A DNA stretch of 34,661 nt from the sequence record DRR723986_1409. The stretch is one strand, 5' to 3'. This document shows positions 8,093 through 33,663 of the stretch, piece by piece. The translations under genes were made by a program, and so were the position numbers. How positions within the stretch are numbered: position 1 is the stretch's first letter; every line of letters starts with the position of its first letter. The notes below the pieces were generated by a model. That model made no database searches. It was given only the letters and a program-made list of their open reading frames with translations, and was not told the DNA's origin.

Positions 8093-10040
8093 AGGCAAGA
8101 TTGCCTTCGGAGTGTTGAGCCTCGTACTCGTCGGTCTCGCCATGGGCTATGTCGTGGCGACCGGCTTTGTCATGTTCCGCTATGGGCTTTCTCCCTCGCG
8201 TTTCGACGTCACCCTGCTTGCCCGCGAATATCGGGGTCTGTCTCAGTCTGCACCGAAGGACTTCCTCTGGGTGAACCTCATCCTTGGCGGCTTCGGCCTG
8301 GCATCGCTGATGCTGAGTGTCACGCTTCTGGGGGATGCATTGACCCGCTTCGGGACGACGCATTGGCAGACCCGCGGTGAGATGAAGAGGAACGGTTTCT
8401 TTGCCAAACCCGGTGGCGGCTTCCTTCTGGGCAAGCTCGGCTCCCCGAAGTCCAAGCGCCCGTTCCTTGTCTCAAAAACCTTCCCCCACGCACTGATTGT
8501 GGCGCCTACAGGCCGCGGCAAGGGCGTGGGATTTGTGATCCCGAACCTGCTGACCTACAAGGGCTCGGCCGTGGTGCTCGACGTGAAAGGCGAGAACTTC
8601 CGCGAGACCTCGCGCTTCCGCGCCAGCATGGGGGACAAGGTTTTCCGCTTCGCGCCGACGGACTGGGATCGTCCAACCCACCGCTATAATCCGCTGGCGC
8701 GCATCGCGGCCATGACCAACCCCGACCGGCAGCAGATGGAGCTGAAACTCACCGCCAAGCTTTTCCTGCAGACCGACAACGAAAAGCTGAGCGGCCTTCT
8801 CGCAGGCGGTGTCGACTTGTTCGTGGCGGCCGGCCTTCTTGCCTTCGAGCGCGGCGTGCCGACCATCGGCGAGATTTACCGCATCACAGCCTCGGGGGGC
8901 GACAAGCAGAAGGAATATCTGAAGCGCTCGCAGGAGGTGATGAACAGGTCGGCCAAGCTGATCTTCGAGCGCATGGCCTCGACCAACAACGACACCCTCA
9001 CGTCCTACCTGTCGCTTCTCATGACCTCGGGTCTCGACACCTGGGACAACCGCGCGATCGACGCGGCCACCGCGACATCTGACTTCTCGTTCCGGGATAT
9101 CCGCCGCCGCCCGCATGCGATCTATCTTGTGGTCGAGTCAGAGATGATCCGCCCGCTCGCTCCGCTGATCCGACTTTTCTTTTCCGACCTGATCGCCTCG
9201 CTGCAGGCGCAGGAACCCGGAGATGACGAGCCCTGGCCGGTGATGATCATGCTCGACGAGTTCGACCGGCTCGGGAAAATGCCGATCGTCGCAGAAAGCA
9301 TCAAGACCCTGCGTTCCTATGGCGGTAACCTCGCCATCGTCACCCAGACGATTCCTGCTTTGGACGAAATCTATGGCGAGAACACTCGCAGGTCGCTTCA
9401 GGGCGGCGCCGGCGTGAAGCTCTACCTCACCCCATCCGAGCAGAAGACCATCGAGGAGTTGAGCCAGGCTGTCGGCAAGACCACCAAGCGCGTGGTGACC
9501 CGGTCCCGTGCTGTCGGTCGCAATCCCTTCGAGGGGCGCAGCGTCTCTGAGCGAACCGAGGATACCCCGCTCCTGACAGAGGACCAAGCCCGGCGCATGG
9601 ACCTCGATGAGGTGATCCTCGTGATCGACGCGCAGATGCCGATCCGGGCGCGGCGGATCAAGTACTTCGAAGACCCCGCGCTGAAGGTGCTGCATGCGGG
9701 TCAGGTGGGAAGTTTCCCATATCCGGACGAGGATGGGCTGAGGCGGGATCGGCAGATGTCGGAGACCCGCGAGACGTTGGAAAAGCTGAAGCAGGAGCTA
9801 CAAGAGGTGCGGGCGGCAAATGTTGCATCGGAAGTCGGTTCGAACGCGCCGAACACACCGAAGACTGAACCTGTCAACTCAGCGAAAGCCCGAGGCCGCG
9901 CAGCTCGTGCTGCTGCGAGCAGCGGTGGCCAGGGTCAGCTGTCGCTTGATATCGAGGGATTGGGGATTATCAGCTCAGACCGGACAGCGTTGGCTTCGGC
10001 TGTTCTAACGACGAGGGCTATTATCGCGGAGCATGGGTGA
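8085..10040 (+). CDS. virD4: Type IV coupling protein
   Basis: Two N-terminal TM segments, Walker A APTGRGKG, VLDVKGEN and Walker B MLDEF. Confidence 0.95.
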   Translation: MDKGKIAFGVLSLVLVGLAMGYVVATGFVMFRYGLSPSRFDVTLLAREYRGLSQSAPKDFLWVNLILGGFGLASLMLSVTLLGDALTRFGTTHWQTRGEMKRNGFFAKPGGGFLLGKLGSPKSKRPFLVSKTFPHALIVAPTGRGKGVGFVIPNLLTYKGSAVVLDVKGENFRETSRFRASMGDKVFRFAPTDWDRPTHRYNPLARIAAMTNPDRQQMELKLTAKLFLQTDNEKLSGLLAGGVDLFVAAGLLAFERGVPTIGEIYRITASGGDKQKEYLKRSQEVMNRSAKLIFERMASTNNDTLTSYLSLLMTSGLDTWDNRAIDAATATSDFSFRDIRRRPHAIYLVVESEMIRPLAPLIRLFFSDLIASLQAQEPGDDEPWPVMIMLDEFDRLGKMPIVAESIKTLRSYGGNLAIVTQTIPALDEIYGENTRRSLQGGAGVKLYLTPSEQKTIEELSQAVGKTTKRVVTRSRAVGRNPFEGRSVSERTEDTPLLTEDQARRMDLDEVILVIDAQMPIRARRIKYFEDPALKVLHAGQVGSFPYPDEDGLRRDRQMSETRETLEKLKQELQEVRAANVASEVGSNAPNTPKTEPVNSAKARGRAARAAASSGGQGQLSLDIEGLGIISSDRTALASAVLTTRAIIAEHG

Positions 10041-10161
10041 GCGTGGGAGAACTCACTAAGCCCTTCTGCATCGGCGATTGGCCTTTTGCAGACGAACTGA
10101 AAGGTGAAGTCTTTCACCCGATTGGTGCAGGGTAGGTGTTCGGAACGCCATGTGCATCCTA

Positions 10162-11265
10162 CTAAGCAGTTGATGTTCCGGGTGGAGGGGCAATCGAGCC
10201 GCGCGACAAGTAGCGCGGTCGCAACTTCAGGTTCCGCGCTCTGCCCTTGGCCCCCTTGATCCGTGCAATCAGCAGGGCCGTCGCCGCTTTGCCAAGACGC
10301 CTGCGCGGTTGGGCGATTGCATCGATACCGCTACCCACGAAGGCCATCCAGTCCAGATCGTCAAAGCAGACAAGTGATAGATCATCCGGTACGCTCAATC
10401 CGCACGCCACGATAGCCGCCATGGCCCCAGATGACATCAGCCCATCTGCGCAGAACAGCGCGGTTGGCCGGTCGGGGGTCTCAAGAAGCGCGCGCACCGA
10501 TTGCTGCGCTGCCGATGCGGAATGCTCACCAACATGGACAATCAGCGCCGGGTCGATCTCAAGCTGCGCGTCACGATGCGCCGCAAGATAGCCTCCAAGA
10601 CGCTGCCAGCTTGTCGAGACTGCGTTCAGATTGGTTCTGCCCCCCTGCCCTGCCGAGGCAAGGAATTTGGGCAGATCTTGAGAAGCAGTGCGGCCCAATT
10701 CCGCCACGACACCTATGCGGCGATGACCTGCCCACAAAAGCCGGGCTACGCCATCGCGGGAGCTTTCGATATTCTCGACTGAGACACTGTCGATCTGAAG
10801 ACCCGTCACCTTGCGGTCGATTAGCACCATCGGTATTCCGGCTGCAGCCGCCTCTTTGAGGTGAGGGGAGTCCATAACATCGCAGGGAGAGACGATGAGC
10901 CCGTCAACCTGATTCTCTCGCAGCAGTTTCGTGGCGGCAATCTCACGCGCAACCGTTTCATCACTGTTTGTGATCAACATGCTCATGCCGCGCGCTTCCA
11001 CCCCATCCGATATGCCTCGCAATACGGCAGCATAGAATGGGCTCGAGATATCGCCGGCAATTACCCCGATGGTGCGGGTCTGACCGGTGATCAGACCGCG
11101 CGCCAGTTTGTTGGGCCGATAGCCTAGCTCGGAGGCAACAGCCTCAACCCGCTCTTTGGTTTTTGCACCTGCATAGCCGTAATTCCCGAGAACTCGGCTC
11201 GCTGTGGCGACGCTGACCCCGGCCTTGGCCGCAACCTCGACGATCGTTACTTTCGCTGCCTTCAT
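10162..11265 (-). CDS. LacI-family transcriptional regulator
   Basis: VTIVEVAAKAGVSVATASRVL HTH, YRPNKLARGL hinge and a periplasmic-binding-protein-like effector domain. Confidence 0.95.
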   Translation of the reverse strand: MKAAKVTIVEVAAKAGVSVATASRVLGNYGYAGAKTKERVEAVASELGYRPNKLARGLITGQTRTIGVIAGDISSPFYAAVLRGISDGVEARGMSMLITNSDETVAREIAATKLLRENQVDGLIVSPCDVMDSPHLKEAAAAGIPMVLIDRKVTGLQIDSVSVENIESSRDGVARLLWAGHRRIGVVAELGRTASQDLPKFLASAGQGGRTNLNAVSTSWQRLGGYLAAHRDAQLEIDPALIVHVGEHSASAAQQSVRALLETPDRPTALFCADGLMSSGAMAAIVACGLSVPDDLSLVCFDDLDWMAFVGSGIDAIAQPRRRLGKAATALLIARIKGAKGRARNLKLRPRYLSRGSIAPPPGTSTA

Positions 11266-11340
11266 GCGGTCCGATCCGTTTTGCTGCGCAGGCGTGGTAA
11301 ACTACTCAGGCTCGCGCTCGCATCCCGCAACCCGTGCCGC

Positions 11341-12291
11341 CTATGGAAGACGTTCAGACAAGGCCACGGCGGCAAAAAGGTCAAGATGGCCGCCGCCGAC
11401 ATTCTTGAACACCGTGATTTCCGAGTCCGACTGACGGCCTGGATGCGCGCCCCGGCAGAGTTGATAGAGGTCTGCGCCGACGTCATCCCAGTTGATAACC
11501 CCGGCGGCCACGGGGCGGGCCAATTCGCCAGAGCCTTTCATCCCGTCCCGGCAATCGACAAAGATCTGCCCGCGCGCCATTGCTTCGTCATCGGCCTCGC
11601 GCATGTCCGGCAAATAGGCACCGACCAAGTCGAGATGCGCCCCGGGTCTCAGAAGCGCCCCCCTGATCAGCGGCTCGCGGGCCATCGTGACACAAGAGAT
11701 GATATCGGCGTCGGCCACGGCTGCATCCAGGTCGCGCGTTGCCGCGATATCGACGCCTTGCGTATCGGCCCCCGCCATTAGCGAAGTGGCAAGCGTCTCG
11801 GCGCGCTCGGGCGTGCGGTTCCAGATCAGGATGCGGTTCAGAGACGGGCGCGCGGCGCGATGGGCAGCGATGACATGCGGCGCAAGACCCCCTGCCCCGA
11901 CAACCAGCAGCGTCCCGCAATCAGGCCGCGCAAGCAGCCGCGTGCCTAGCCCTGAATCCGCCGCAGTCTTGCGGAAGGTCATCGCCTCGCCATCGGCGGC
12001 AAGCATCGGTGCCCCGGTGGCAGGGTTAAAGAGCGCGACCAACCCCTGCACCGAGGCTTGCGGCGGATCGAACGCCAGATTGCCGGGAAAGACCCCGACC
12101 ATTTTGACCGCGATGCCCTTGCCACCCTGCCAGCCCACAAGGGTCACGAATTGATTGTCGCCGCCCTCCGGCTCGGTGCTGACAATATGATCGGCGGCTG
12201 GATGCACTCCCTGATGGGCCTGGTACAACGCCTCGATCAGATAGGGGTAGTCCAGCAATCGGTGGACGGTTTCGGCATCTGCCAGTCTCAT
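11341..12291 (-). CDS. Ornithine cyclodeaminase / mu-crystallin family NAD-binding enzyme
   Basis: VKMVGVFPGN, RKTAADS, VVGAGGLA, IWNRT, GAHLDLVG, ITVFKNVG and DL motifs. Confidence 0.9.
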   Translation of the reverse strand: MRLADAETVHRLLDYPYLIEALYQAHQGVHPAADHIVSTEPEGGDNQFVTLVGWQGGKGIAVKMVGVFPGNLAFDPPQASVQGLVALFNPATGAPMLAADGEAMTFRKTAADSGLGTRLLARPDCGTLLVVGAGGLAPHVIAAHRAARPSLNRILIWNRTPERAETLATSLMAGADTQGVDIAATRDLDAAVADADIISCVTMAREPLIRGALLRPGAHLDLVGAYLPDMREADDEAMARGQIFVDCRDGMKGSGELARPVAAGVINWDDVGADLYQLCRGAHPGRQSDSEITVFKNVGGGHLDLFAAVALSERLP

Positions 12292-12301
12292 CGCAGACTC
12301 C

Positions 12302-13309
12302 TCAGTAGTCGTCGAGTTTCTTCATGTAGCGCCGTGCCGTCATCATCTCGTGTTGGCGCAAGTCCGCCAGGCGATAGGCGAAGGTCCACAGCGTATCGAA
12401 GAACACCAGTGGCGCAAGCGCGCCGCGAAACTCGGGGACGACTCCGGTGAAATCGAGCTCGGCAGCATCAACCACCAGGATATTCTCTGGACGACCAAAG
12501 CGCAGCAGGAAGTTTTCGGCGCGCTCTTCCAGCGGGCGCGTATCGTCCAGCCCTTTCATCAGGATGTAGCAGCGGTTGTCATCCAGAACCTCGAACGCAC
12601 CGTGGAAAAACTCGTTGGCGTGGATCGGGTGGCTGTTGATCCACTGCATCTCCATCAACACGCAGATCGCATAGGAATAGGCCGCGCCGTAGCTGGCCCC
12701 GCTGGCCGTTGTATAGATCACATCTTGTTTCGCAAAATGTGGGGCGTATTGGTCGAAACGCGGCGCGAAAACACCCTGCGCACGGTCGATGACCGATTGC
12801 AGCGCATCAAGACTGTCCATCAACGCGACCATATTTCCACCACCATCATAGCGAGCAGCAAGCCCCTGCACGATCTGGTAGATCCGGGCGTAATTGCTGT
12901 TCTTGGCATCGATCGGAATGCCGGTCGTGTAGGGCGCTTCGAACGCCACGACATGATCGCTGGCTTTGGCTAGCGGGCTCTCAGGGTCCACTGTTAGCGA
13001 GATTGTCAACGCCCCGGCCTCTCGAGCGAACTTCGCCGCCGCGACGGTTTCGCGCGTTGTGCCTGTCATCGAGCACAGGATGACCAGCGATTGCGCAGTT
13101 AGCCGCCTGGGCGCGCGATGAGTGAATTCGGCCGCGTTGTAGAGATCCGATGGCAGTTTGGCCGAAACCTGATCCAGCATGAATTTAGCCGGATACATGA
13201 TCGAGAGAGACCCGCCACAGGCCACGAAGAACACTTGCTCCGTGTCGCGTCCGTCAAGCGCCTGGAGCGCACGCACAACATCGGGATGAGGGGATTGAGG
13301 TTCAGACAT
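12302..13309 (-). CDS. frlB: SIS-domain fructosamine-6-phosphate deglycase (FrlB-like)
   Basis: FFVACGGS, ILCSMTGTTRETV, ICVLMEMQW and EFFHGAFE; C-terminal RRYM. ATG 13309 with GGAG RBS. Confidence 0.85.
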   Translation of the reverse strand: MSEPQSPHPDVVRALQALDGRDTEQVFFVACGGSLSIMYPAKFMLDQVSAKLPSDLYNAAEFTHRAPRRLTAQSLVILCSMTGTTRETVAAAKFAREAGALTISLTVDPESPLAKASDHVVAFEAPYTTGIPIDAKNSNYARIYQIVQGLAARYDGGGNMVALMDSLDALQSVIDRAQGVFAPRFDQYAPHFAKQDVIYTTASGASYGAAYSYAICVLMEMQWINSHPIHANEFFHGAFEVLDDNRCYILMKGLDDTRPLEERAENFLLRFGRPENILVVDAAELDFTGVVPEFRGALAPLVFFDTLWTFAYRLADLRQHEMMTARRYMKKLDDY

Positions 13310-13372
13310 CTTGTGGGGCTCCGCATTATTGACAACAGGAATTCGCGGGTCGCTTGACAGCCGCATGTGATT

Positions 13373-13390
13373 TGTGTGAACGTTCTCACA
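13373..13390. promoter_or_regulatory. LacI-type operator between divergent frlB and frlD
   Basis: TGTGTGAACGTTCTCACA is a 16/18 palindrome with central CG. TTGACA lies at 13354-13359. Confidence 0.75.
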
Positions 13391-14322
13391 TGATGTTAAG
13401 AAACGCAACCTCTCCGCAGATCGTTGCCTTCGGGGACAATGATGTGGATTGCTACGAGGCGCACGGGGCGATGTATCCGGGCGGCAATGCGCTGAATGTG
13501 GCGGTTTTTGCCCGACGCGCCGGGGCGAATGCGGCTTTTATTGGCGCCATGGCGGATGATCCCGCCGGGAGCCACATGCGCGCCGCATTGGAAATGGAAG
13601 GCGTCAACATCACGCGCCTGCGCCGTGCTGCGGGCCGCACCGCATTCTGCGTGATTGGCAATACGGCCAGCGGTGAGCGAGAGTTCCTGCGCGCCGATCT
13701 GGGCGTCTCCATTATCGCGCCTAATGCCGGAGATCTAGAAATGATCGCCAGGGCCGATGTCGTCCACACCGGACGCTCTGCCCATGTCGAGGCGCATCTG
13801 TCAGCATTCTCCAACCGCGCGCGTCTGTCTTTCGATTTCGCGGACCAGACCGGAGTCGATTATGTAGATGCCATCGCGCCGATGTGTTTTCTGGCGAGCT
13901 TTTCGGGCGGTAGTATGACCGACGCAGAGGTCGCCACGTTGCAAGCGCAGGTGCGCAAGGCAGGGGCGAACTGGTGCCTTATCACACGCGGCCAGAACGG
14001 CGCCTACCTGACCGGACCTGATACGGATGTAGGTGTTCCCCCCGCGCCCGCCGAAATCGTCGATACGCTCGGTGCCGGGGACAGTTTCATCGCGCGGGTT
14101 CTCACCGGGCTTTTGCGTGGCGAAGACCCGCGCGCCTTGATGCAGGCCGCCGCCATCATGGCTGGCGAAACCTGCGGCCAGCGCGGTGGCTTCGGTCACC
14201 CCGCACCCATCGACATTGACCAAAGCCACGCCATGCCGATCGGCTTGATCCATGCGCATGCCGCCGAACTGGCGGACCGGGCCAGAAAGCGCAGCGCCGA
14301 AACCGGCGTCCCGGCCAAGTAA
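13390..14322 (+). CDS. frlD: PfkB-family fructosamine kinase (FrlD-like)
   Basis: FGDNDVDCY…PGGNALNVAVF and DTLGAGDSF motifs; divergent from frlB. Confidence 0.85.
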   Translation: MMLRNATSPQIVAFGDNDVDCYEAHGAMYPGGNALNVAVFARRAGANAAFIGAMADDPAGSHMRAALEMEGVNITRLRRAAGRTAFCVIGNTASGEREFLRADLGVSIIAPNAGDLEMIARADVVHTGRSAHVEAHLSAFSNRARLSFDFADQTGVDYVDAIAPMCFLASFSGGSMTDAEVATLQAQVRKAGANWCLITRGQNGAYLTGPDTDVGVPPAPAEIVDTLGAGDSFIARVLTGLLRGEDPRALMQAAAIMAGETCGQRGGFGHPAPIDIDQSHAMPIGLIHAHAAELADRARKRSAETGVPAK

Positions 14323-14342
14323 CGCAACACGGAGGACGAGAC

Positions 14343-15347
14343 ATGACTACCCCATTCAATGCCCTAACCCGACGCCACGCCCTTGCCATGCTGGCCAGCA
14401 CACCGCTCGCCCTTTCGGCAAGAACTGCCTTCGCTCAGGATGCGGCAAATTTCAGGATCGCTTCGGTCAACGCGCCAACCGCGCTGTCCAACACGCTCGC
14501 CGAAGAGGTCGGCAACCGGATCATGGAGCGCACCGAAGGGCGCGTCACGTTCCAGATGTTCCCGAGTGCCCAATTGGGCACGACGACCGACACCATCGAA
14601 CAGGCAAGCCAGGGTCAGCCGACCATCGCCTATACCTCGGCCAGCAACCTGTCGCAGTTCGGTGTGCCCGAGCTTGCCGCGGTCGAGGGGCCGTTCATCG
14701 TCGGCAATGCCGCGGAAGCCGAGCGCCTCGCCAATTCGGACCTGATGCAGGGCTATTATGATCAGCTTGCCGAAACCGCCGGTCTGCGCGTGCTGGCGTT
14801 GAACTGGTTCGACGGGGCGCGCCACATGATCGGCACCGAGCCCTATCCGCACCCCTCCGACCTGGAGGGCGTCCTGATGCGCGTGCCGCCGCTTGAAACT
14901 TGGCTCAACACCTTCGAGCCAATGGGCGTGGTCGCCACCACGGTGGAAGCCGCGGAGGCCTATTCTGCCTTGGCCCAGGGCGTCGTGACCGCAGGGGAAT
15001 CCCCGTTGACAGGCCTGCGTGCGAACCGGTGGTATGAAGTCGTCAAGGAAATCACCCTAACCGGACATTTCAACCTGTTCCTTGGCTGGGTCACGTCAGA
15101 GGCGGCCTTCCAGGCCTTGTCGGAGGGCGACCGCGCCATCATGCTGGAGGAGTTCCGCGGTGGTGGGCAGGAGCTGACAGCGCAATCCATCGCGTTGGAA
15201 GAGGAAATCCGCGCCGAGTTTGAAGCGGCGGGAGTTACGTTCCACGAGGCGGACCTCAACGCCTATCGTGAAGCCACTTCCAGCTTCTTCGATGATCTGC
15301 CGGAAGGTCTGTTCGACAGCATTCGTTCCGCCGCGACACAGGGCTGA
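14343..15347 (+). CDS. dctP: TRAP transporter substrate-binding protein (DctP family)
   Basis: Twin-arginine-like leader TRRHALAML, FPSAQLG, GARH, conserved Arg in LMRVP, EAYSALAQGVV and TLTGH. Confidence 0.92.
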   Translation: MTTPFNALTRRHALAMLASTPLALSARTAFAQDAANFRIASVNAPTALSNTLAEEVGNRIMERTEGRVTFQMFPSAQLGTTTDTIEQASQGQPTIAYTSASNLSQFGVPELAAVEGPFIVGNAAEAERLANSDLMQGYYDQLAETAGLRVLALNWFDGARHMIGTEPYPHPSDLEGVLMRVPPLETWLNTFEPMGVVATTVEAAEAYSALAQGVVTAGESPLTGLRANRWYEVVKEITLTGHFNLFLGWVTSEAAFQALSEGDRAIMLEEFRGGGQELTAQSIALEEEIRAEFEAAGVTFHEADLNAYREATSSFFDDLPEGLFDSIRSAATQG

Positions 15348-15355
15348 CCAATGGG

Positions 15356-15378
15356 TGCCGACACGATCTGTGTCGGCA
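15356..15378 (+). other. Intercistronic stem-loop after dctP
   Basis: TGCCGACAC-GATCT-GTGTCGGCA, a perfect 9-bp stem at the usual position of an mRNA-stabilising hairpin. Confidence 0.65.
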
Positions 15379-15405
15379 TCTTCGAGCTGTTGGGAGGTAT
15401 CCGGG

Positions 15406-15882
15406 ATCGAACGTGTTTTTTTGCGACCTTTGCTGCGCCTGATCGGCGAATTGATCCCGACACTCCTTCTCGGGATAGTGCTTGTGGCGGTCGGTGCAAA
15501 CGTCATTTCGCGAACAGTGCTTCGCGAAGGGTTCCAAGTCGCCAATGAACTGGCCGTGGTCTGTTTTGCGGGCGTGGTGTTCTTTGGGATCATCGGCGCC
15601 GCGTTGGACAAGCAGATGTTCGGGGTTGATTTCTTCGTATCCAGATTGCCCCGGCGGCTTCAAGCCTGGGTGACTGCGCTGACCCATCTTCTTGTCATTG
15701 CCATCGCACTGCAGGTTCTGAACGCAGCCATTGCACAGGTGTCGACCGCGCGGTTCACCACGTTTCTAGCACTGGGCTGGCCAAAATGGATCGTGTCGGC
15801 CGGTCTGGGTGTGGCAATGTCAGCCATCATCTTGGTCCAACTGCTCCATCTTGCCGAACTTTGGCGGGAGCGCCACACATGA
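15406..15882 (+). CDS. dctQ: TRAP small permease (DctQ); start uncertain (ATC 15406 or TTG 15421)
   Basis: Four TM segments, NVISRTV…NELA, GVDFFVSRLP and LGWPKW. Stop overlaps the dctM start (ATGA). Confidence 0.85.
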   Translation: MERVFLRPLLRLIGELIPTLLLGIVLVAVGANVISRTVLREGFQVANELAVVCFAGVVFFGIIGAALDKQMFGVDFFVSRLPRRLQAWVTALTHLLVIAIALQVLNAAIAQVSTARFTTFLALGWPKWIVSAGLGVAMSAIILVQLLHLAELWRERHT

Positions 15883-17156
15883 TTGCGTCAGGCATTGCCT
15901 TCCTTGCGCTGCTGGTGCTGCGTGTTCCCATCGCCTTCGTGATCCTGGGGGCCTCGGTGATCTATTTCGCCCTCAACCCGATGATGGCAAGCACCGTGGC
16001 GCAACGCATGGCTTCGTCACTGGAGAGCTTCCCGCTGCTCGCGGTGCCGTTTTTTATCGTTGCAGGCGCCGCTATGGCCCGTGGCGGCATCGCCCAACGT
16101 CTCTACGATTTCGCCGATGGGCTTGTCGGACACTGGCATGGCGGGCTGGCGCAGGTGGCAGTGATGAACTCGCTTTTCCTGGGGGCGATGTCGGGTTCAT
16201 CCAACGCGGACGCCGCCATTGACGCGCGCACCATCGCGCCGATCATGCGTCAGCGCGGCTATTCCAACGGTTTCGCCTCGGTGGTCAGCGCCGCCTCGGG
16301 GGCCATCGCGCCGATTATGCCGCCCTCGATCGGGCTGATCGTCTATGGGTTGCTGACCGACACCTCCATTGGACGCCTGTTTATCGGCGGCATTATCCCG
16401 GCATTCATCATCACCTGCGCGTTACTGCTGACGGTGCGCATCATGGCGAAACGGCGCGGTTACAAACCCGAGCGTGCGCAGAGATTGCCCGCGCGCCAGA
16501 TCGCGGCGCGCGGGCAATCTGCCCTTTGGGCGCTGGCGATGCCGGTGCTGCTGATCGTCGGGCTACGCGGTGGCTGGTTCACACCGACCGAGTTGGGGGC
16601 AATGGCCGCTCTCTATGCTTTCGTTATCGGCATCTTCGTCTATCGCGGCTTTCGACTGTCCGAAACTTATGACCTGCTGCGCGAATCCGCGCTGACAACC
16701 GCGAATGTCCTGTTCATCGTGGCCTCAGCGGCCGTCTTCTCACTGGTTCTGGCGCTGGAGCAGGTGCCGCAATCTCTGTTGACCAGCCTGCTGTCTTTGT
16801 CCGACAACAAATATGTCATCCTGATGATCCTGACCGTGATGCTGCTGGTGCTTGGCACCATGCTTGAAGGCCTTGCGTTGATGGTGATCCTGGTCCCGAT
16901 CCTCAATGAGGTGACGCGCACCCTCGGCATAGACCCGGTCCATTTCGGCATCGTCCTGGTATTCAACACAACCATCGGCTCGATCACGCCACCCGTTGGC
17001 ACGGTCCTTTATACCGTCTGCTCGATCACCAAATGCTCGATTGAGGAGTTCAGTCGCGAATCCCTGCCCTTCCTGGCCAGCCTGATCGGCGTACTACTTC
17101 TCTTGACCTATGTGCCAGCGCTGGTGACGTTCCTGCCGAACCTGTTGTTCCGCTGA
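15879..17156 (+). CDS. dctM: TRAP large permease (DctM)
   Basis: SFPLLAVPFF, GAMSGSSNADA, IMPPSI, FTPTE, GIDPVHFG and ITPPVG motifs. Confidence 0.95.
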   Translation: MIASGIAFLALLVLRVPIAFVILGASVIYFALNPMMASTVAQRMASSLESFPLLAVPFFIVAGAAMARGGIAQRLYDFADGLVGHWHGGLAQVAVMNSLFLGAMSGSSNADAAIDARTIAPIMRQRGYSNGFASVVSAASGAIAPIMPPSIGLIVYGLLTDTSIGRLFIGGIIPAFIITCALLLTVRIMAKRRGYKPERAQRLPARQIAARGQSALWALAMPVLLIVGLRGGWFTPTELGAMAALYAFVIGIFVYRGFRLSETYDLLRESALTTANVLFIVASAAVFSLVLALEQVPQSLLTSLLSLSDNKYVILMILTVMLLVLGTMLEGLALMVILVPILNEVTRTLGIDPVHFGIVLVFNTTIGSITPPVGTVLYTVCSITKCSIEEFSRESLPFLASLIGVLLLLTYVPALVTFLPNLLFR

Positions 17157-17615
17157 TCCTGGAAGCGATAAGTGCCCATGAGAGTGGTTTTTCAATGGCG
17201 GCGCGTGCCATATTGACCGTGCGGCCACAAATCCACTCGTCATTCTCGGCGTCCGCGACCGGTCGGCGGAACCGTTCGCCTTTGCAGCTTTCGGCACGGG
17301 CACGCAAATGGGTCGATTATTCCATGCAAATGGTGCAATCCAACACCGGAGTTGAGACCTACCATCTGCACCTGCCTTCACCGCTTCCCCAAGCTGGCAC
17401 TGAACCGAAGAAATTGGTAGCCACAGTATAGGATTGGCAACGGTGAGCCGCCTCAGATACTGCATGAATGCTCACCCACCTGGTCTTGACTTCACGAAGT
17501 CATCGCCCCGACCAATAATCCAACGCGGTGAGACGAGGGGCGATCTTGAGTTGAACCTATTATGTTAAAGGAGTTCAGTAACTCATTGAAGATAGAAGTA
17601 AACTCGTCCAACCCA

Positions 17616-18641
17616 TCACGGGGCCAACCGTTTCGCCCTCTCCGCTATCCGCACCACTTGCGCGCTCGCGGTCGCCGCAGCGCTCCGCACAACCACAGGC
17701 GCCTGCACCGCACCTCGTCCGATCGCTTCGCCTGTCGTGAGTGCACCGATCCTCGCCCGGCCCTTGACGCCGTCCGTATTGAAGACTCCCCGCATGATCC
17801 CGAATGATCCAGCGACCACAGCGGGTGCCGCAGCCACCATCAGATTCCCCGAGATCCCACGTACGATCAGCGGCGTCGCCGCAACGAAACCCTTGGCCAG
17901 GAACACCATCACGAAGAACGGCACCAGCGAGCCGATGTTGGTGGCCGAGTTCGGGTCACCGAGCTGGGCCAGAAGCGAGTTCGCCATGCCGACGACGGTC
18001 GAGAACATGGCGGCGATGACGATGGGGTAGAAGGCGTAGCTGATCGTCGTCGAGACCCATCTGTGGAAGAAATCCTTGGTCGCATCGAAGAGCGACAAAG
18101 CGATCATGATCGGAGCAAGGCCGAGCATCAGCGTCAGCATCATCTTGGCGAAGATGAGGACGATGCCGGTCATGAAGCCAAGAAGGCTCAGGAGCACCAG
18201 ACCGATGCCGCCGAGGATCGCGCCAGTCATCCAGTTCAGGTTGTTACCGATCGCGTTCAGGTACTGGCTGAACTCCGTGATGAGATCATCGAACTCGGCG
18301 GCAAAGTACGTTGCCCCTGCCCCGCCGCCACCGACCGAGGAGATCAGAGCCCCGGCGATGTAGTCGAGCCCGCCGATCACGGCATTGGCCACAGCGTTGA
18401 AGTTGGCCCAGTTGAAGGCAAAGAGCCCTATCAACATCAGCTTTATCAGGTACCAGAAGAAGCTGGCCCCATCCATGCTTCGGAACTGGAAGGCCATGTT
18501 GATACAAACGCCGATCAGCGAAAGCGTGACCATCAGCAGGACGATCGTGCCGGTATTGCTCGCCACAGCCCCGAACTGGGACTCGGCGGCATCGGCAAGG
18601 AAGCCGTCGGCGGTTCCAACCATCCAGCTGACGATGCTCAT
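17616..18641 (-). CDS. virB6: T4SS inner-membrane protein VirB6/TrbL
   Basis: Polytopic membrane protein with LAPIMIALSLFDATKDFFHRW. Start overlaps the upstream stop. Confidence 0.88.
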   Translation of the reverse strand: MSIVSWMVGTADGFLADAAESQFGAVASNTGTIVLLMVTLSLIGVCINMAFQFRSMDGASFFWYLIKLMLIGLFAFNWANFNAVANAVIGGLDYIAGALISSVGGGGAGATYFAAEFDDLITEFSQYLNAIGNNLNWMTGAILGGIGLVLLSLLGFMTGIVLIFAKMMLTLMLGLAPIMIALSLFDATKDFFHRWVSTTISYAFYPIVIAAMFSTVVGMANSLLAQLGDPNSATNIGSLVPFFVMVFLAKGFVAATPLIVRGISGNLMVAAAPAVVAGSFGIMRGVFNTDGVKGRARIGALTTGEAIGRGAVQAPVVVRSAAATASAQVVRIAERAKRLAP

Positions 18642-19060
18642 TACCAGTTGCCTTGCGCTTCGCAGATATCCTGGACGTCGCGGGCGATCTGGTTCTGCTC
18701 GTTGCGAATGGCCAGCCGCGCTTGAGTATGCTCGGCCTGCGTGCTTGTTGCGAACCGTTCCTCGTACTCGGCGGAGGCTGCATCCCATGACGGGAAGCGG
18801 ACATCACAGCCGCAGTCGCCAGTTTCCTGGATCGCCTCCCATGACCGCAGCTCGTAGAGCCGCATCAACGTCAGCGCCTTGTAGGCCTCACGCGGGTGAG
18901 CCTCGTCCATCCAGGTCGGGCGAGCGGGCCGGTCGTTGCAGATCCGGTATTGCTGGGGCGACATGGTCACGGTGAGATCGTTCGTCACCTGAGGCGCGGT
19001 CTGGGCCGCGAGGGGCGCGGCCAGCAGGGTGACAGCGGCGGTGAGGGTGATCTTGCGCAT
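18641..19060 (-). CDS. Secreted 4-Cys hypothetical protein inside the virB operon
   Basis: MRKITLTAAVTLLAAPLAA|Q signal; C, CGC and C residues; translationally coupled to virB6. Confidence 0.8.
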   Translation of the reverse strand: MRKITLTAAVTLLAAPLAAQTAPQVTNDLTVTMSPQQYRICNDRPARPTWMDEAHPREAYKALTLMRLYELRSWEAIQETGDCGCDVRFPSWDAASAEYEERFATSTQAEHTQARLAIRNEQNQIARDVQDICEAQGNW

Positions 19061-29305: not shown

Positions 29306-30355
29306 GGCCTTGTTGCACAAATCGGGGCCTGACCGCAGGTCCCCTTTCCCCGGACGGATTTATCCTACGGCCTCAGTGATAGGTATACCAAGCGCGGTGT
29401 AGCCGTTCAGGACAGCGATGCGGACCTGCAGTTCGGCGACTTGGCGATCGAAGTCGAGGGCCATGAGGGATTGGCCGAGTAACTTGATGCAGTTCATCTT
29501 TGCCTCGACACGGCTCCGACGGTGGTATCCGCTCCAACGTCGCCACAACGTCTTGCCCAGATACCGGGACGCACGCACCGCCTCGTTTCGGGCGATGGCG
29601 CCGGTGCTTGTGGGCTTCCAGGGCTTGGCGTTTTTGCGGGGTGGGATGACGGCATGTGCGCCACGTGCGGCAATCGCGTCATGGCATTTGCGCGTGTCGT
29701 AAGCTCCGTCAGCGGTAACCGATCCGACATCCTGATCTGGTGGGATTTGGTCGAGCAGTTCGGGCAACATGGGCGCGTCGCCGATGTTGCTGCCGGTGAT
29801 CTCGACGGCCCGGACCTCCAGCGTTTGCTCATCAATTCCGATGTGTATCTTTCGCCAGATGCGCCGCTTGGGGCCGCCGTGCTTGCGCGCGTTCCACTCG
29901 CCTTCGCCCTCGGCCTTGATGCCGGTGCTGTCGATCAGCAGGTTCAGCGGGCCCGTGCCGCCACGGTAAGGGATGGCCACGTTCAACGTCCGCTGGCGGC
30001 GGCACAAGGTGCTGAAGTCCGGCACCCGCCAGTCCAGCCCGACCAGGCGCAAAAGGCTTTCGACGAACCCGGTTGTCTGTCGCAACGGCATGCCGAACAG
30101 CACCTTCATGGTCAAACAAGTCTGGATCGCAGCGTCGCTGAAACTCGGCTGTCGCCCGCGCTTCCCCGTCGGCGCCGGTCTCCACACCATGTCGGGATCA
30201 AACCAGATCGTCAGCGATCCGCGTTGCAGGAGTGCTTCATTGTAAGCCGACCAGTTCGTGGTCTTGTACTTCGTAGGTGCCCAACTGCTCATGACCTCCA
30301 GCTATCATGCTGGATTCACGCAGTGAATCCCTCACTCGATTTGTGCAACAAGGCC
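29306..30355 (-). mobile_element. IS5-family (IS903-group) insertion sequence, 1050 bp
   Basis: Perfect 19-bp terminal IRs GGCCTTGTTGCACAAATCG (29306-29324) and CGATTTGTGCAACAAGGCC (30337-30355) around a single transposase. Confidence 0.95.
29360..30292 (-). CDS. IS5/IS903-group DDE transposase
   Basis: TNWSAYNEAL…RGSLTIW, IDSTGIK, WRKIHIG, ADGAYDT and GYHRRSRVE motifs. Confidence 0.95.
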   Translation of the reverse strand: MSSWAPTKYKTTNWSAYNEALLQRGSLTIWFDPDMVWRPAPTGKRGRQPSFSDAAIQTCLTMKVLFGMPLRQTTGFVESLLRLVGLDWRVPDFSTLCRRQRTLNVAIPYRGGTGPLNLLIDSTGIKAEGEGEWNARKHGGPKRRIWRKIHIGIDEQTLEVRAVEITGSNIGDAPMLPELLDQIPPDQDVGSVTADGAYDTRKCHDAIAARGAHAVIPPRKNAKPWKPTSTGAIARNEAVRASRYLGKTLWRRWSGYHRRSRVEAKMNCIKLLGQSLMALDFDRQVAELQVRIAVLNGYTALGIPITEAVG

Positions 30356-31267: not shown

Positions 31268-32473
31268 TCAGATCCGTTTTGCCGGCGGCAGGGTCAGAAG
31301 CGCCCTGCCATAGGCCAGGGCGAACCCGCCGAAGGCCGCAATCCAGGCCGTGCCGGCAACGGCATGCAGATGCATGGACATATCGGGCCAGCCCCCCGCA
31401 GCTGTCCGCGCAAGCACGGCAAGCACGAGCGCGGCGTAGATCGCGACCGTCGCTTTGCCCGCGCTTAACGACTGCCCCGTGTGCCCGAGGGTCGCGCGGG
31501 TCATGACCGCCAGCGTCATCAGCCCGATGGCTCCCCCCATCCACAGGTGCTGCGCCGCGGCCATGCCAAGGGTTCCTGGCATCAGCAGTTCCGTGCCAAG
31601 CGCCAGCGCCCCGAGGGGCAGAAAGGCGTAGCCTGCGTGCAGCACCGTCACCAGCGGCTCTGACAAGGTGCGGTGTCCCGCCCATCTTGCGAGGCGCCAC
31701 AGATGAATCCCGCCTGCCAGCAGCTGCACAGCCCCGGTGGTGCGGGCGAGGGGATGCGCCACCCAGAGGAGGAGCGCCGCGAGCAGCACCATAAGGGCCA
31801 GCTTGTCGAAGCGCTGCATCGGCGCAGCCGGAAGCCTGCCCGGCCCGCGTTTGACTAGCCAGTTCCGCGTGAAGGACGGGACGATCCGCCCGCCGATCAC
31901 CGCGATCATCATAAGCCCGGCCCCAAGACCAAGGCGCAAGCCAAAGCCCTGAGCGGCATAAAGGCCCTGCGCGGCTTCCCAGTGGAAAATCCCGTTGCCA
32001 AGGGAGAAGACGGCCAGAATCCCCAGAACGATCAGGTTGCGCCAGTTCTGTCCGGCCACGATCTCTCGCAGGATTGCCGCAGCCAGCGTGACGGGGAAGG
32101 CCAGGTCGATCAGCGCCACGGCGATGGGCCCCAGTCCAGCCGGAAGCAGCATCGCGACACGCCCGGCCAGCCACAGGGCCGCCAATGCGCCAAGCGGCCA
32201 GCCGACAATGGGCAGGCGGCCGGTCCAGTTCGGCACGGCGGTCAGCAGGAACCCCGCAATTACCGCGCCGAGATAGCCGAAGAGGAATTCATGCGCGTGC
32301 CAGCTGACCGGATCGAAGGCCGTGGGCGGGGCGATATGGCCCATCAGCATCGGGATCCAGAGCAGCATGGAAAAGGCCGCCCACAGGGCCGCGCCAAGAA
32401 AGAACGGGCGGAATCCGTAGGTCAGGATGGAGGGACCGGCCCAGGCCCGCATCTGTTCTGTCGTGGTGGTCAT
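31268..32473 (-). CDS. nnrS: NnrS-family membrane protein
   Basis: GFRPFFL, WHAHEFLFG, GFLLTAVPNWTG, IGGRIVPSFTRN, LHAGY and MTRATLGHTG motifs. Confidence 0.93.
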   Translation of the reverse strand: MTTTTEQMRAWAGPSILTYGFRPFFLGAALWAAFSMLLWIPMLMGHIAPPTAFDPVSWHAHEFLFGYLGAVIAGFLLTAVPNWTGRLPIVGWPLGALAALWLAGRVAMLLPAGLGPIAVALIDLAFPVTLAAAILREIVAGQNWRNLIVLGILAVFSLGNGIFHWEAAQGLYAAQGFGLRLGLGAGLMMIAVIGGRIVPSFTRNWLVKRGPGRLPAAPMQRFDKLALMVLLAALLLWVAHPLARTTGAVQLLAGGIHLWRLARWAGHRTLSEPLVTVLHAGYAFLPLGALALGTELLMPGTLGMAAAQHLWMGGAIGLMTLAVMTRATLGHTGQSLSAGKATVAIYAALVLAVLARTAAGGWPDMSMHLHAVAGTAWIAAFGGFALAYGRALLTLPPAKRI

Positions 32474-33663
32474 GATGCCTCGCTTCGTTCTGCTGTCATT
32501 GGATAATCCCCGGAATCGGCGCGGCGGAGGTCGGGCCGTTTCGGCCCGCTGAACACCGGCCTCGGTGCAGGGCGGAACAGCGCCGCGCCGTGCCGCGCCA
32601 GGAAAATGGCCCAGGCCAGGCACCAGAGGGCAGGCGCGGCTGCGTCCCAGTGCGCCCCGGCTGGCGTCACGACACGCCAAGCGGCGGCTGCCCACAAGAG
32701 CCCAAAGCCAGCCGCGTCGGCAGGCGATGTCCGCAACCGGTCGCCGCGCCGCGCGACCGCACGCGCGGCCACCGCGTAGATCGAACAGGCGATGGCACCA
32801 GCCGCAAGCCCGTGCAGGGCGGCGCTTTCCAATAGCAGCGATCCAGGCACCTTGCCAATCGCCAACAGCGCCAGCCCGATGGGCAACCAGGCATATCCCG
32901 TGTGCAGCATGAGCAGCAGACCGTCTGTCAGGATCTCCCAGGACAGCCAAAGGCATACCCGCACCGTCTCGAAGGCGGCGGCCAGCAACAGGCAGGCGGC
33001 AAGCCAGTCAGGCGCAGCCCGCAGGGTTTCGAGACCAAGCGCGGCGAGGATCGTGACCGATCCCAGCAGGCCGAAAACCCCGGCGATCCGAAAGCGCCGT
33101 TTCTGCGCTTCGCTGACAGTCAGAGCGTTCAAGGTAAAGGCCGCAACCATTCGCCCACCCACGACTGACAGAAGGGCTGCGAAGCCAAGAATGGGGACGT
33201 GTGGCGGGCTTGCGCCGGTCAGAACCGCAACCTGAGATCCGGTCATTGCCAGCGAGAACAGCGCCAGGGGTGCTGCTCGCATGGTCCGGGATCGCAGCAC
33301 CGAACGGGCAAGGATCAGCGTCAGGAAGGCCATGAACGACACGCTTGCCGGAGCGGCAAGGCGCAGGTCCGGCCCGAGCGCGCCCGCCGCAGACAGCCGG
33401 GCGAGAACCCACAGGACGACGAGGGCGGCAAGCCCGGCAGAGGACAGGCGCGCCCTGCCCGGCCAGCTTGTCATCGCGGTCAGCGCATAGCCTGCAAACA
33501 AGGCGGCGGCGACGCCGAAGGCCATTTCATGCGCGTGCCACGCCGAAAGCCCGCCCAGAGGCGAGCGTGCCAGATCGAAACCCGTCTCCGGGGCGACCGC
33601 GACGACCGCGACAATCGCCCAGGATCCGCCAGCCAGGAACATCGCGCGGTGCGGGGCCGTCAT
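32470..33663 (-). CDS. nnrS: Divergent NnrS-family paralog
   Basis: PHRAMFL, WHAHEMAFG, GYALTAMTSW, VGGRMVAAFT, LHTGY and ALHG motifs. Confidence 0.8.
   Translation of the reverse strand: MTAPHRAMFLAGGSWAIVAVVAVAPETGFDLARSPLGGLSAWHAHEMAFGVAAALFAGYALTAMTSWPGRARLSSAGLAALVVLWVLARLSAAGALGPDLRLAAPASVSFMAFLTLILARSVLRSRTMRAAPLALFSLAMTGSQVAVLTGASPPHVPILGFAALLSVVGGRMVAAFTLNALTVSEAQKRRFRIAGVFGLLGSVTILAALGLETLRAAPDWLAACLLLAAAFETVRVCLWLSWEILTDGLLLMLHTGYAWLPIGLALLAIGKVPGSLLLESAALHGLAAGAIACSIYAVAARAVARRGDRLRTSPADAAGFGLLWAAAAWRVVTPAGAHWDAAAPALWCLAWAIFLARHGAALFRPAPRPVFSGPKRPDLRRADSGDYPMTAERSEAS

Follow-up and report, generated by a model that had tools for sequence, protein, structure and literature searches.

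A plasmid-borne Frl-like gene module that combines a TRAP importer with a ketimine-reductase-like enzyme, a candidate pathway for a glycated amino acid in a marine roseobacter

Introduction

What does a set of genes resembling a fructosyl-amino acid pathway do between virD4 and virB6 of a conjugative plasmid, and is its position connected with its function? This question is raised by a stretch of DNA of 34,661 nucleotides from sequence record DRR723986_1409 (the window, by which we mean the whole stretch analysed). It carries an island of seven genes, encoding a LacI-family repressor, an enzyme of the ornithine cyclodeaminase (OCD)/mu-crystallin family, a double-SIS protein resembling sugar-amine deglycases, a PfkB-family kinase, and the DctP, DctQ and DctM subunits of a transporter of the tripartite ATP-independent periplasmic (TRAP) type. 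Bacteria of gut and soil are known to use Amadori compounds, which they take up through amino acid-polyamine-organocation (APC), ATP-binding cassette (ABC), phosphotransferase system or Dcu-type transporters; FrlA of Escherichia coli, for example, is an APC permease.

We find that the island is a real module that is horizontally mobile, LacI-regulated and Frl-like, with a TRAP importer and a ketimine-reductase-like partner. Our reading is that it serves the LacI-controlled catabolism of a glycated amino acid, most likely a fructoselysine-type (lysine-sugar Amadori) compound, and we assign this reading a probability of about 0.55. The block itself is a seven-gene cargo on a marine roseobacter conjugative plasmid. 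Open reading frames (ORFs) and domains agree with the gene set and arrangement that a first-pass annotation, made from the letters of the window, had given for the region between virD4 and virB6.

Results

An FrlB/FraB-type deglycase with a kinase and a TRAP importer

The SIS protein aligns with 3eua, a putative fructose-aminoacid-6-phosphate deglycase of Bacillus subtilis, over residues 12-327 of 329 (298 bits, 1.1e-87), and it is 50.5% identical to a copy on a B. subtilis plasmid. Structures of Salmonella FraB (9otj and others) match over the full length at 183-185 bits (1e-52 to 1e-53), and Salmonella FrlB (8glr) matches at 124 bits. By comparison, GlmS isomerase domains reach 1e-9, and structures of GlmS and NagB-II score at most 41 bits. 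A Glu/His dyad spaced 16 residues apart (E224/H240 in FrlB, E214/H230 in FraB) is described as nearly universal and essential, and FrlB is described as having a conserved Ser46 and a phosphate loop of the form S-x-S-G-x-T-x-E, comprising S91, S93, G94, T96 and E98 (PMC10285752, in part). The sole E-x15-H in the 335-residue island protein is formed by Glu220 and His236, likewise 16 residues apart, and Glu220 aligns with the position altered in the FraB variant chain 9otu. A CGGS motif at residues 31-34 supplies the conserved serine, and the phosphate loop reads S-M-T-G-T-T-R-E at residues 80-87, with threonine replacing the second serine. The top NCBIfam model is NF008481 (fructoselysine 6-phosphate deglycase), and the GlmS and NagB-II models match weakly. 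Since the NF008481 score of 109.7 bits lies under the cut-off of 430, the protein is best called FrlB-like and not an equivalog of E. coli FrlB. The kinase is placed in the same manner, with NF007321 (fructoselysine 6-kinase) as its top model at 133.2 bits, under a cut-off of 247.

All three TRAP components exceed their family cut-offs (NF037995, 154.2 against 50; PF04290, 73.9 against 28.3; TIGR00786, 408.7 against 268.45). DctP has a twin-arginine-like signal (TRRHAL), and an alignment of its clade shows an invariant Arg180 within an MRVPP motif. An identical DctP (100%) is found in scaffold12 (143.6 kb) of Nioella ostreopsis Z7-4 and in one metagenome-assembled genome (MAG). The linkage of an Frl-like kinase and deglycase to a TRAP system, which the first-pass annotation had pointed out, is thus supported by gene set and domains alike. 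That annotation also knew of no TRAP uptake for fructosyl-amino acids. Our full-text searches, which covered a set outside which most subscription journals lie, likewise found no paper tying TRAP transport to fructoselysine or Amadori compounds, most of the few papers that contained both kinds of term being judged by title, and in the searched literature fructoselysine and pipecolate appeared together in one mammalian paper.

The module recurs in two orders of Alphaproteobacteria

DctP was searched for in one genome per species (185,579 species), and the proteins of the window were then compared by tblastn with the 17 loci found; gene calls in these relatives (handles beginning with L) are ORF-based and not curated annotation. 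The loci belong to Nioella, Sulfitobacter, Flavimaricola, Paracoccus, Nitratireductor, Mesorhizobium, Aquamicrobium, Devosia, Pelagibacterium and Rhizobiaceae. All seven genes stand together in 14 of the 17, across two orders (Rhodobacterales and Hyphomicrobiales), and the co-occurrence that the first-pass annotation had named as a check on its proposal is therefore found. In Nitratireductor and a Rhizobiaceae MAG the OCD gene follows dctM. The OCD gene of L008 is cut by a contig end, and L011 is itself the end of the contig that also bears L016. Near the module of Mesorhizobium sediminum (L018) lies an integrase-core gene. In this species and in Sulfitobacter profundi (L013) several genes match in part, such as DctP over 209 and 225 of 334 residues, respectively, and these two modules may be decaying. 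A Devosia MAG (L012) has orthologous DctPQM (61% identity) beside a GntR/UTRA regulator and distant FrlB-like (137 bits) and FrlD-like (180 bits) copies, and has no LacI or OCD gene; it associates the TRAP system with Frl-like genes independently of the other loci. In Pelagibacterium lacus (L014) the TRAP, OCD, AmaA-like and LacI genes are grouped, and a distance of about 22 kb on that contig separates them from the SIS (59% identity) and PfkB genes.

The module is rare: when 401 alphaproteobacterial genomes were sampled evenly, an SIS orthologue at E<=1e-40 was present in a single one, the nearest genome (G001). Among plasmids, megablast with the island recovers that of Sulfitobacter indolifex alone (pDSM14862_b, L001), on which the seven genes stand in unchanged order beside an IS481, and the wider family is seen by protein search only: SIS homologues occur in 391 plasmid records, and in 17 of these the identity is at least 60%. 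Besides the 17 genome loci, seven plasmid records were inspected for module content. The importer beside the core is TRAP only in S. indolifex; TRAP together with a polar-amino-acid ABC system in Agrobacterium tumefaciens pAtCFBP6626a, which carries a full version of the module, and in the plasmid of Paracoccus sp. Arc7-R13; and ABC only, within 9 kb, in Sinorhizobium meliloti ABS7 pSymA and the plasmids of Shinella and Brucella anthropi. The Microvirga plasmid has an ABC system, and a gene for a TRAP binding protein borders its locus; no OCD gene is listed for it, but PLSDB tables omit pseudogenes. Based upon these versions, the conserved core consists of LacI, the OCD-like enzyme, the SIS protein and PfkB, and TRAP and ABC systems are alternative or additional importers. 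Beside the modules of Shinella (L037, 1-8854) and B. anthropi (L040, 10240-18996) lies a second, different cluster of SIS, LacI, sugar-ABC, FAD-oxidoreductase, TIM-barrel and PfkB genes, which suggests larger islands for several sugar-amine compounds.

A single conserved operator

The first-pass annotation had arranged the genes around one operator, and we find one candidate, the palindrome TGTGTGAACGTTCTCACA between the divergent SIS and PfkB genes. At up to three mismatches it is the single such site in the window, where 0.01 would be expected by chance. The repressor has the helix-turn-helix and the periplasmic-binding-protein-like core of its family, and the putative operator has the central CG typical of LacI-type sites. 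With 0-4 mismatches the palindrome is kept in the same intergenic place at 16 loci, namely 15 of the 17 genome loci and the S. indolifex plasmid. It is missing from the Devosia locus, which has no LacI, and P. lacus L014 shows only a five-mismatch site near its LacI gene. Extra copies precede FrlC-like and ABC genes on rhizobial plasmids and in P. lacus. LacI orthologues, 48-69% identical, occur in 14 of the 17 genome loci as well as in S. indolifex.

The OCD-family enzyme is closest to ketimine reductases by sequence

The family label that the first-pass annotation gave to this enzyme holds, but the enzyme is no close relative of true ornithine cyclodeaminases (EC 4.3.1.12). The OCD equivalog model NF005762 scores 85.7 bits against a cut-off of 350, whereas NF004793, for delta-1-pyrroline-2-carboxylate (Pyr2C)/delta-1-piperideine-2-carboxylate (Pip2C) reductases, scores 297.4 bits, just under its cut-off of 322. 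The top sequence match in the PDB is 7rbp (1.3e-58), entitled Medicago truncatula delta-1-piperideine-2-carboxylic acid reductase; in the same search Pseudomonas putida OCD gave 6.8e-17 and lysine cyclodeaminases (LCDs) about 4e-15. The cyclodeaminases have a characteristic aspartate, Asp228 in OCD and Asp236 in LCD (PMC5935100, in part). In a predicted structure (predicted local distance difference test score 91.8), the top fold match is the Pyr2C reductase of T. litoralis (Z 42.0, root-mean-square deviation 1.7, 309 residues), 7rbp follows with Z 40.6 and 37% identity, and P. putida OCD (1x7d) lies below these reductases with Z 37.4 and 25% identity. Since Z values span 34-42 across all family members, the reaction cannot be told from the fold by itself. 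By sequence, the enzyme is closest to the Pip2C/Pyr2C reductases and not to the cyclodeaminases, and it probably makes pipecolate.

Accessory genes of relatives point to lysine and pipecolate

Directly beside the module in L005, L014, L015, L016 and L018 are DAO-family genes for which the L-pipecolate oxidase AmaA is by far the top NCBIfam model. They score 320-477 bits, under the cut-off of 600, and in an alignment headed by the L016 copy they show 41-50% identity to it. AmaB (L-piperidine-6-carboxylate dehydrogenase) exceeds its cut-off of 730 in L005 (799.8), L006 (795.3) and P. lacus (809.5), and HglS exceeds its cut-off of 550 in L016 (752.9) and P. lacus (740.5). On the P. lacus contig (L034, 2658-10822) the order is FrlC-like, SIS and divergent PfkB, class I/II aminotransferase, AmaB, HglS and LysR, with the FrlC-like gene upstream of the SIS gene. 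In this species, therefore, genes of deglycation and of lower lysine (2-aminoadipate/2-oxoadipate) catabolism are found head to tail on one strand. The FrlC-like TIM-barrel genes of the P. lacus, S. meliloti and A. tumefaciens versions have NF007360, fructoselysine 3-epimerase, as top model (119-137 bits, under a cut-off of 305). Moreover, GntR/UTRA (FrlR-like) regulators lie between the OCD and SIS genes in L005, L006, L010 and L016, and in the same place in plasmid records L035-L039. Proline, arginine and glutamine catabolic genes did not recur in the flanks scanned.

Because the extended modules hold FrlB, FrlC, FrlD and GntR/UTRA counterparts together with the pipecolate branch, a fructoselysine-type conjugate is the best candidate substrate. 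Among the options that the first-pass annotation had offered, the one leading from lysine to pipecolate fits best, given the AmaA-like, AmaB and HglS genes of relatives and the proximity to Pip2C reductases.

The modules of L005 and L006 also include a flavoprotein of 677-700 residues with Oxidored_FMN and Pyr_redox_2 domains and a DUF3483/4Fe-4S/CCG protein of 630-648 residues, both within the regions 7894-9927 and 12864-14756 of L005 and 7767-9869 and 12970-14916 of L006. The Microvirga version (L038) has an NADH:flavin oxidoreductase of the same flavoprotein type at 4297-6369. We take the flavoprotein and its DUF3483/CCG partner to resemble the two-subunit amine demethylase/dehydrogenase pairs.

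The island occupies a variable cargo slot

The relaxase-virD4 and virB6-virB10 segments of the window are 80-92% identical to many MOBP/MPF_T roseobacter plasmids, with virD4 at about 92% nucleotide identity. Against a Celeribacter ethanolicus plasmid, backbone homology ends at the virD4 stop (10041) and restarts at 17625; against the Sulfitobacter modules, homology is limited to the seven genes (10304/10694-17150). The virD4-virB6 gap holds a nickel-transporter gene in Celeribacter (1.2 kb), a set of helix-turn-helix and AAA-ATPase genes in Leisingera thetidis (7.5 kb), and an RpiR/ABC/MenC-like/ArgE-like/asparaginase set in Roseovarius indicus (11 kb); in other related plasmids it measures, by coordinates, 2.6 to about 24 kb. 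As the gap differs between plasmids and the shared homology covers the seven genes alone, the island is cargo in a variable slot, and this gap of MOBP/MPF_T roseobacter plasmids is a cargo hot-spot.

The first-pass annotation had heard in this location an echo of Ti-plasmid opine logic and had raised the possibility of conjugation linked to the substrate. Neither idea found support. Unrelated cargo fills the same gap elsewhere, and a type IV secretion system (T4SS) context is shared by L002 and L003 only, the window's own lineage; of the 17 genome loci, 15 have the module away from T4SS loci, and so have all seven inspected plasmid records. Furthermore, the window has no second operator, and at either end the island converges with its T4SS neighbour, virD4 on one side and virB6 on the other. 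Nothing in the sequence ties the module to conjugation control.

Other features of the window

Coordinates are collected in Table 1. For the SIS gene the ATG at 13309 is the likely start, since it gives a protein of 335 residues as in annotated homologues, and for the PfkB ORF, open from a TTG at 13354, the ATG at 13390 is likely. The dctM start codon overlaps the dctQ stop. A hairpin directly past the dctP stop may act in mRNA stability or attenuation, to the benefit of the message for the binding protein. Inside dctM, an inverted repeat of two perfect 16-nt arms 7 nt apart (16482-16520) has a 90% match, in inverted orientation, in the MAG copy L003.

Table 1. Genes and sequence features of the island and its immediate flanks (positions in the window).
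Feature	Position	Strand	Basis and remarks
VirD4-type coupling protein, left flank	8064-10040	+	PF02534, 280.3 bits; plasmid backbone
Cargo slot, virD4 stop to virB6 stop	10042-17624	.	Seven genes; spacers of 120 bp on the left and 468 bp on the right
LacI-family repressor	10162-11265	-	Pfam LacI helix-turn-helix and Peripla_BP_1/3/4
OCD/mu-crystallin-family NAD(P) enzyme	11341-12291	-	PF02423, 158.7 bits
Double-SIS FrlB/FraB-type deglycase-like protein	12302-13309	-	335 residues; ORF open to 13408
LacI-type operator palindrome TGTGTGAACGTTCTCACA (candidate)	13373-13390	.	18 bp; in the 80-bp divergent SIS/PfkB intergenic region
PfkB-family FrlD-like kinase	13390-14322	+	310 residues; PF00294, 117 bits
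dctP, TRAP solute-binding protein	14343-15347	+	PF03480, 168.4 bits
Hairpin between dctP and dctQ	15356-15378	+	Repeat search; perfect 9-bp stem, 5-nt loop
dctQ, TRAP small membrane subunit	~15421-15882	+	PF04290, 73.9 bits, residues 88-216 of ORF 15220-15882; start uncertain
dctM, TRAP large membrane subunit	15879-17156	+	PF06808, 390.2 bits; ORF 15786-17156; ATG 15879 likely
VirB6/TrbL, right flank	17616-18788	-	PF04610, 128.3 bits; annotated homologues 341 residues; plasmid backbone

The transfer region in the window comprises a VirC1-like ParA (3898-4632), MobC, a relaxase (5579-8092), VirD4, VirB6, VirB11, VirB10, VirB9 and VirB8, and further a VirB5-like protein, two SLT lytic transglycosylases and VirB4. 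At its edge, past the virB1-like SLT gene, is a DDE transposase gene (29360-30292; DDE_Tnp_1_5 and DDE_Tnp_1). On the minus strand, two overlapping ORFs of the NnrS family (31268-32956 and 32470-33663) probably represent nnrS genes in tandem, the first ORF being over-long. Near the VirC1-like gene, the ORFs 252-1373 (373 residues) and 3246-3965 (239 residues) have no Pfam match at E<=1e-5. An Rfam scan of the whole window at gathering thresholds returned no matches, and a consensus scan of 9900-17700 gave three promoter-like and five terminator-like sites, not above the number in shuffled sequences.

Discussion

From gene content, synteny, operator conservation, the catalytic dyad, family placement and the variability of the insertion site, all of which were computed, we infer the substrate, every enzymatic step and the effector of the following pathway. 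DctP, exported by the twin-arginine route, would bind the conjugate through its carboxylate, and DctQM would import it. The PfkB kinase would then phosphorylate the sugar at C6, and the double-SIS deglycase, using its Glu/His dyad, would cleave the 6-phosphate and so release glucose-6-phosphate and the amino acid. From the lysine-derived skeleton the OCD-family enzyme would form L-pipecolate, acting either as a Pip2C reductase, once an unlinked enzyme has carried out alpha-deamination, or as a cyclodeaminase. LacI would repress the divergent promoters at the one operator until an intermediate accumulates.

It is also possible, though here we are tentative, to go a step beyond this scheme. DctP would then be the first TRAP receptor for an Amadori compound (fructoselysine or psicoselysine) and the OCD-family enzyme a bacterial counterpart of the Pip2C reductases of the plant SARD4 type, so that the cassette would convert glycated lysine to glucose-6-phosphate and pipecolate. 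In a host without amaB and hglS the pipecolate might be kept as an osmolyte, and the cassette would travel as plasmid cargo among marine and soil Alphaproteobacteria.

Several observations weigh against a fructoselysine-type substrate or against parts of the scheme. Every Frl-type NCBIfam score falls below its equivalog cut-off, and specificity is therefore not established. The nearest solved TRAP binding proteins score 98-124 bits against DctP and carry no ligand information, the plasmids of S. meliloti, Shinella and B. anthropi pair the core with an ABC importer, and where plasmids have both importers, the TRAP system could be for a different solute. Should the OCD-family enzyme work as a reductase, the island would encode nothing that leads from lysine to Pip2C. 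The lysine link comes from a minority of relatives, and the seven-gene version in the window is without amaA, amaB, hglS and an aminotransferase gene. The nearest genome, which is 99% complete, has no AmaB or HglS above the cut-offs, and its AmaA-like gene stands in an unrelated context. Finally, the B. subtilis pathway, which has the closest deglycase, is described as favouring alpha-glycated amino acids (PMC12632257, in part).

There is an alternative in which the logic of the pathway is the same and the amino acid is another one (fructosyl-ornithine, -arginine, -glutamine/santhopine or an alpha-glycated neutral amino acid), processed by the OCD-family enzyme, for example from ornithine or Pyr2C to proline. 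This would accord with a deglycase nearest to B. subtilis FrlB, with a model (NF004793) that covers Pyr2C as well as Pip2C reductases, with a top fold match to a Pyr2C reductase with bound L-proline that is tied with the Pip2C reductase (Z 42.0 and 40.6), and with a window free of lysine-specific genes. Nevertheless, the AmaB and HglS of relatives, which score above their cut-offs, are specific to the C6 lysine branch, catabolic genes for proline, arginine or glutamine are not recurrent in the flanks, and assignment as a true OCD is weak (85.7 against 350), so that we consider another amino acid unlikely, if credible. A different division of labour is suggested by P. lacus, where TRAP, OCD, AmaA-like and LacI genes lie about 22 kb from SIS and PfkB, by the position of the OCD gene after dctM in Nitratireductor and the Rhizobiaceae MAG, and by the existence of versions of the core with ABC systems only: two sub-pathways might travel together, TRAP and the OCD-family enzyme for a lysine-derived carboxylate (such as Pip2C, pipecolate or D-lysine), and the kinase and deglycase for a sugar-amine entering by another route. 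However, the Devosia locus joins the same DctP clade to FrlB/FrlD-like genes without an OCD gene, and the seven-gene version has no other importer. In addition, the one operator between SIS and PfkB-dctPQM at 16 loci argues that the kinase and the TRAP genes are co-transcribed, and co-regulated with the deglycase. Such a split is in our view improbable.

There are two further readings. The SIS and PfkB proteins might act on another phospho-amino-sugar or a keto-sugar acid imported by TRAP, in keeping with Frl-type scores that are all under curated cut-offs and with weak matches of GlmS and NagB-II models to the SIS protein. Against this stand the full-length match to a deglycase structure (298 bits compared with at most 41 for GlmS/NagB-II), the conserved deglycase dyad, and the FrlC-like and GntR/UTRA partners in relatives, which together make a non-Amadori substrate very improbable. 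Alternatively, the island could be an opine-like system in which, as on Ti plasmids, conjugation of the element is governed by the substrate. It does lie within the transfer region of a conjugative backbone, and plasmids of Agrobacterium are described as using Amadori opines (PMC4231840, in part). Yet there is no second operator in the window, the island is convergent with virD4 at one end and virB6 at the other, related plasmids fill this slot with a nickel transporter or with modules of ATPase or peptide/ABC genes, nearly all other copies of the module lie outside T4SS loci, and SIS homologues on plasmids of Ti-plasmid size are 39% identical. A link to conjugation is thus extremely unlikely, and a LacI-controlled module for a fructoselysine-type compound remains the reading that we prefer.

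Comparison with known systems places the island among Amadori pathways. It shares with E. coli and Salmonella frlABCDR a PfkB 6-kinase, a double-SIS deglycase with Glu-x15-His and a likely lysine moiety, and its relatives also have FrlC-like and GntR/UTRA proteins; it differs in its TRAP importer, its LacI regulator, an OCD-family enzyme in the core, and scores under the FrlB, FrlD and FrlC cut-offs. In the frlBONMD-frlP system of B. subtilis, kinase and deglycase follow the same logic, and its deglycase (3eua) is the closest in sequence, but there is no OCD-family or TRAP gene; the importer is ABC type I, and the system is said to favour the alpha-glycated amino acids already mentioned (PMC12632257, in part). 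The Salmonella fra system for fructose-asparagine has a FraB that aligns full length and bears the same dyad (PMC12359202, in part), and differs in substrate, downstream step, transporter type and its chromosomal location in an enteric pathogen. In Alphaproteobacteria, the Agrobacterium soc (pAtC58) and moc/mot (Ti/Ri) systems are likewise plasmid-borne and catabolise sugar-amino-acid conjugates, although their substrates are deoxyfructosyl-glutamine and mannopine and their importers are of the ABC type (PMC4231840, in part). Unlike these opine systems, the island has no opine synthase and no conjugation link. The SIS homologues (~39%) on plasmids of Ti-plasmid size may be MocD.

The remaining parallels concern the two partners of the Frl-like enzymes. 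Routes through lysine, pipecolate and 2-aminoadipate involve ALD1 and SARD4 in plants and DpkA, AmaA, AmaB and HglS in P. putida. The 37% identity of the OCD-family protein to the Medicago Pip2C reductase and the linked AmaA-like, AmaB and HglS genes of relatives are features shared with these routes, in which no link to a deglycase or TRAP system is known. With organic-acid TRAP transporters, such as SiaPQM and the DctP proteins of structural genomics, the island shares the three-component DctP/Q/M organisation and an invariant arginine in the DctP clade; the distance to the nearest solved binding proteins (98-124 bits) and the lack of any glycated-amino-acid TRAP in the searched literature set it apart.

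As judged from its sequence, the island is most likely a variant of the known Frl pathway with an importer type not reported for it. If this is true, the ligand range of TRAP transporters widens to sugar-amino-acid conjugates, and DctP provides a concrete receptor. Moreover, the island belongs to a module family on plasmids of roseobacters, rhizobia, agrobacteria and the Brucella/Ochrobactrum group, in which a ketimine-reductase-like enzyme always comes along and amaA, amaB or hglS sometimes do. This pattern suggests that deglycation meets the pipecolate route of lysine breakdown at a junction not yet described.

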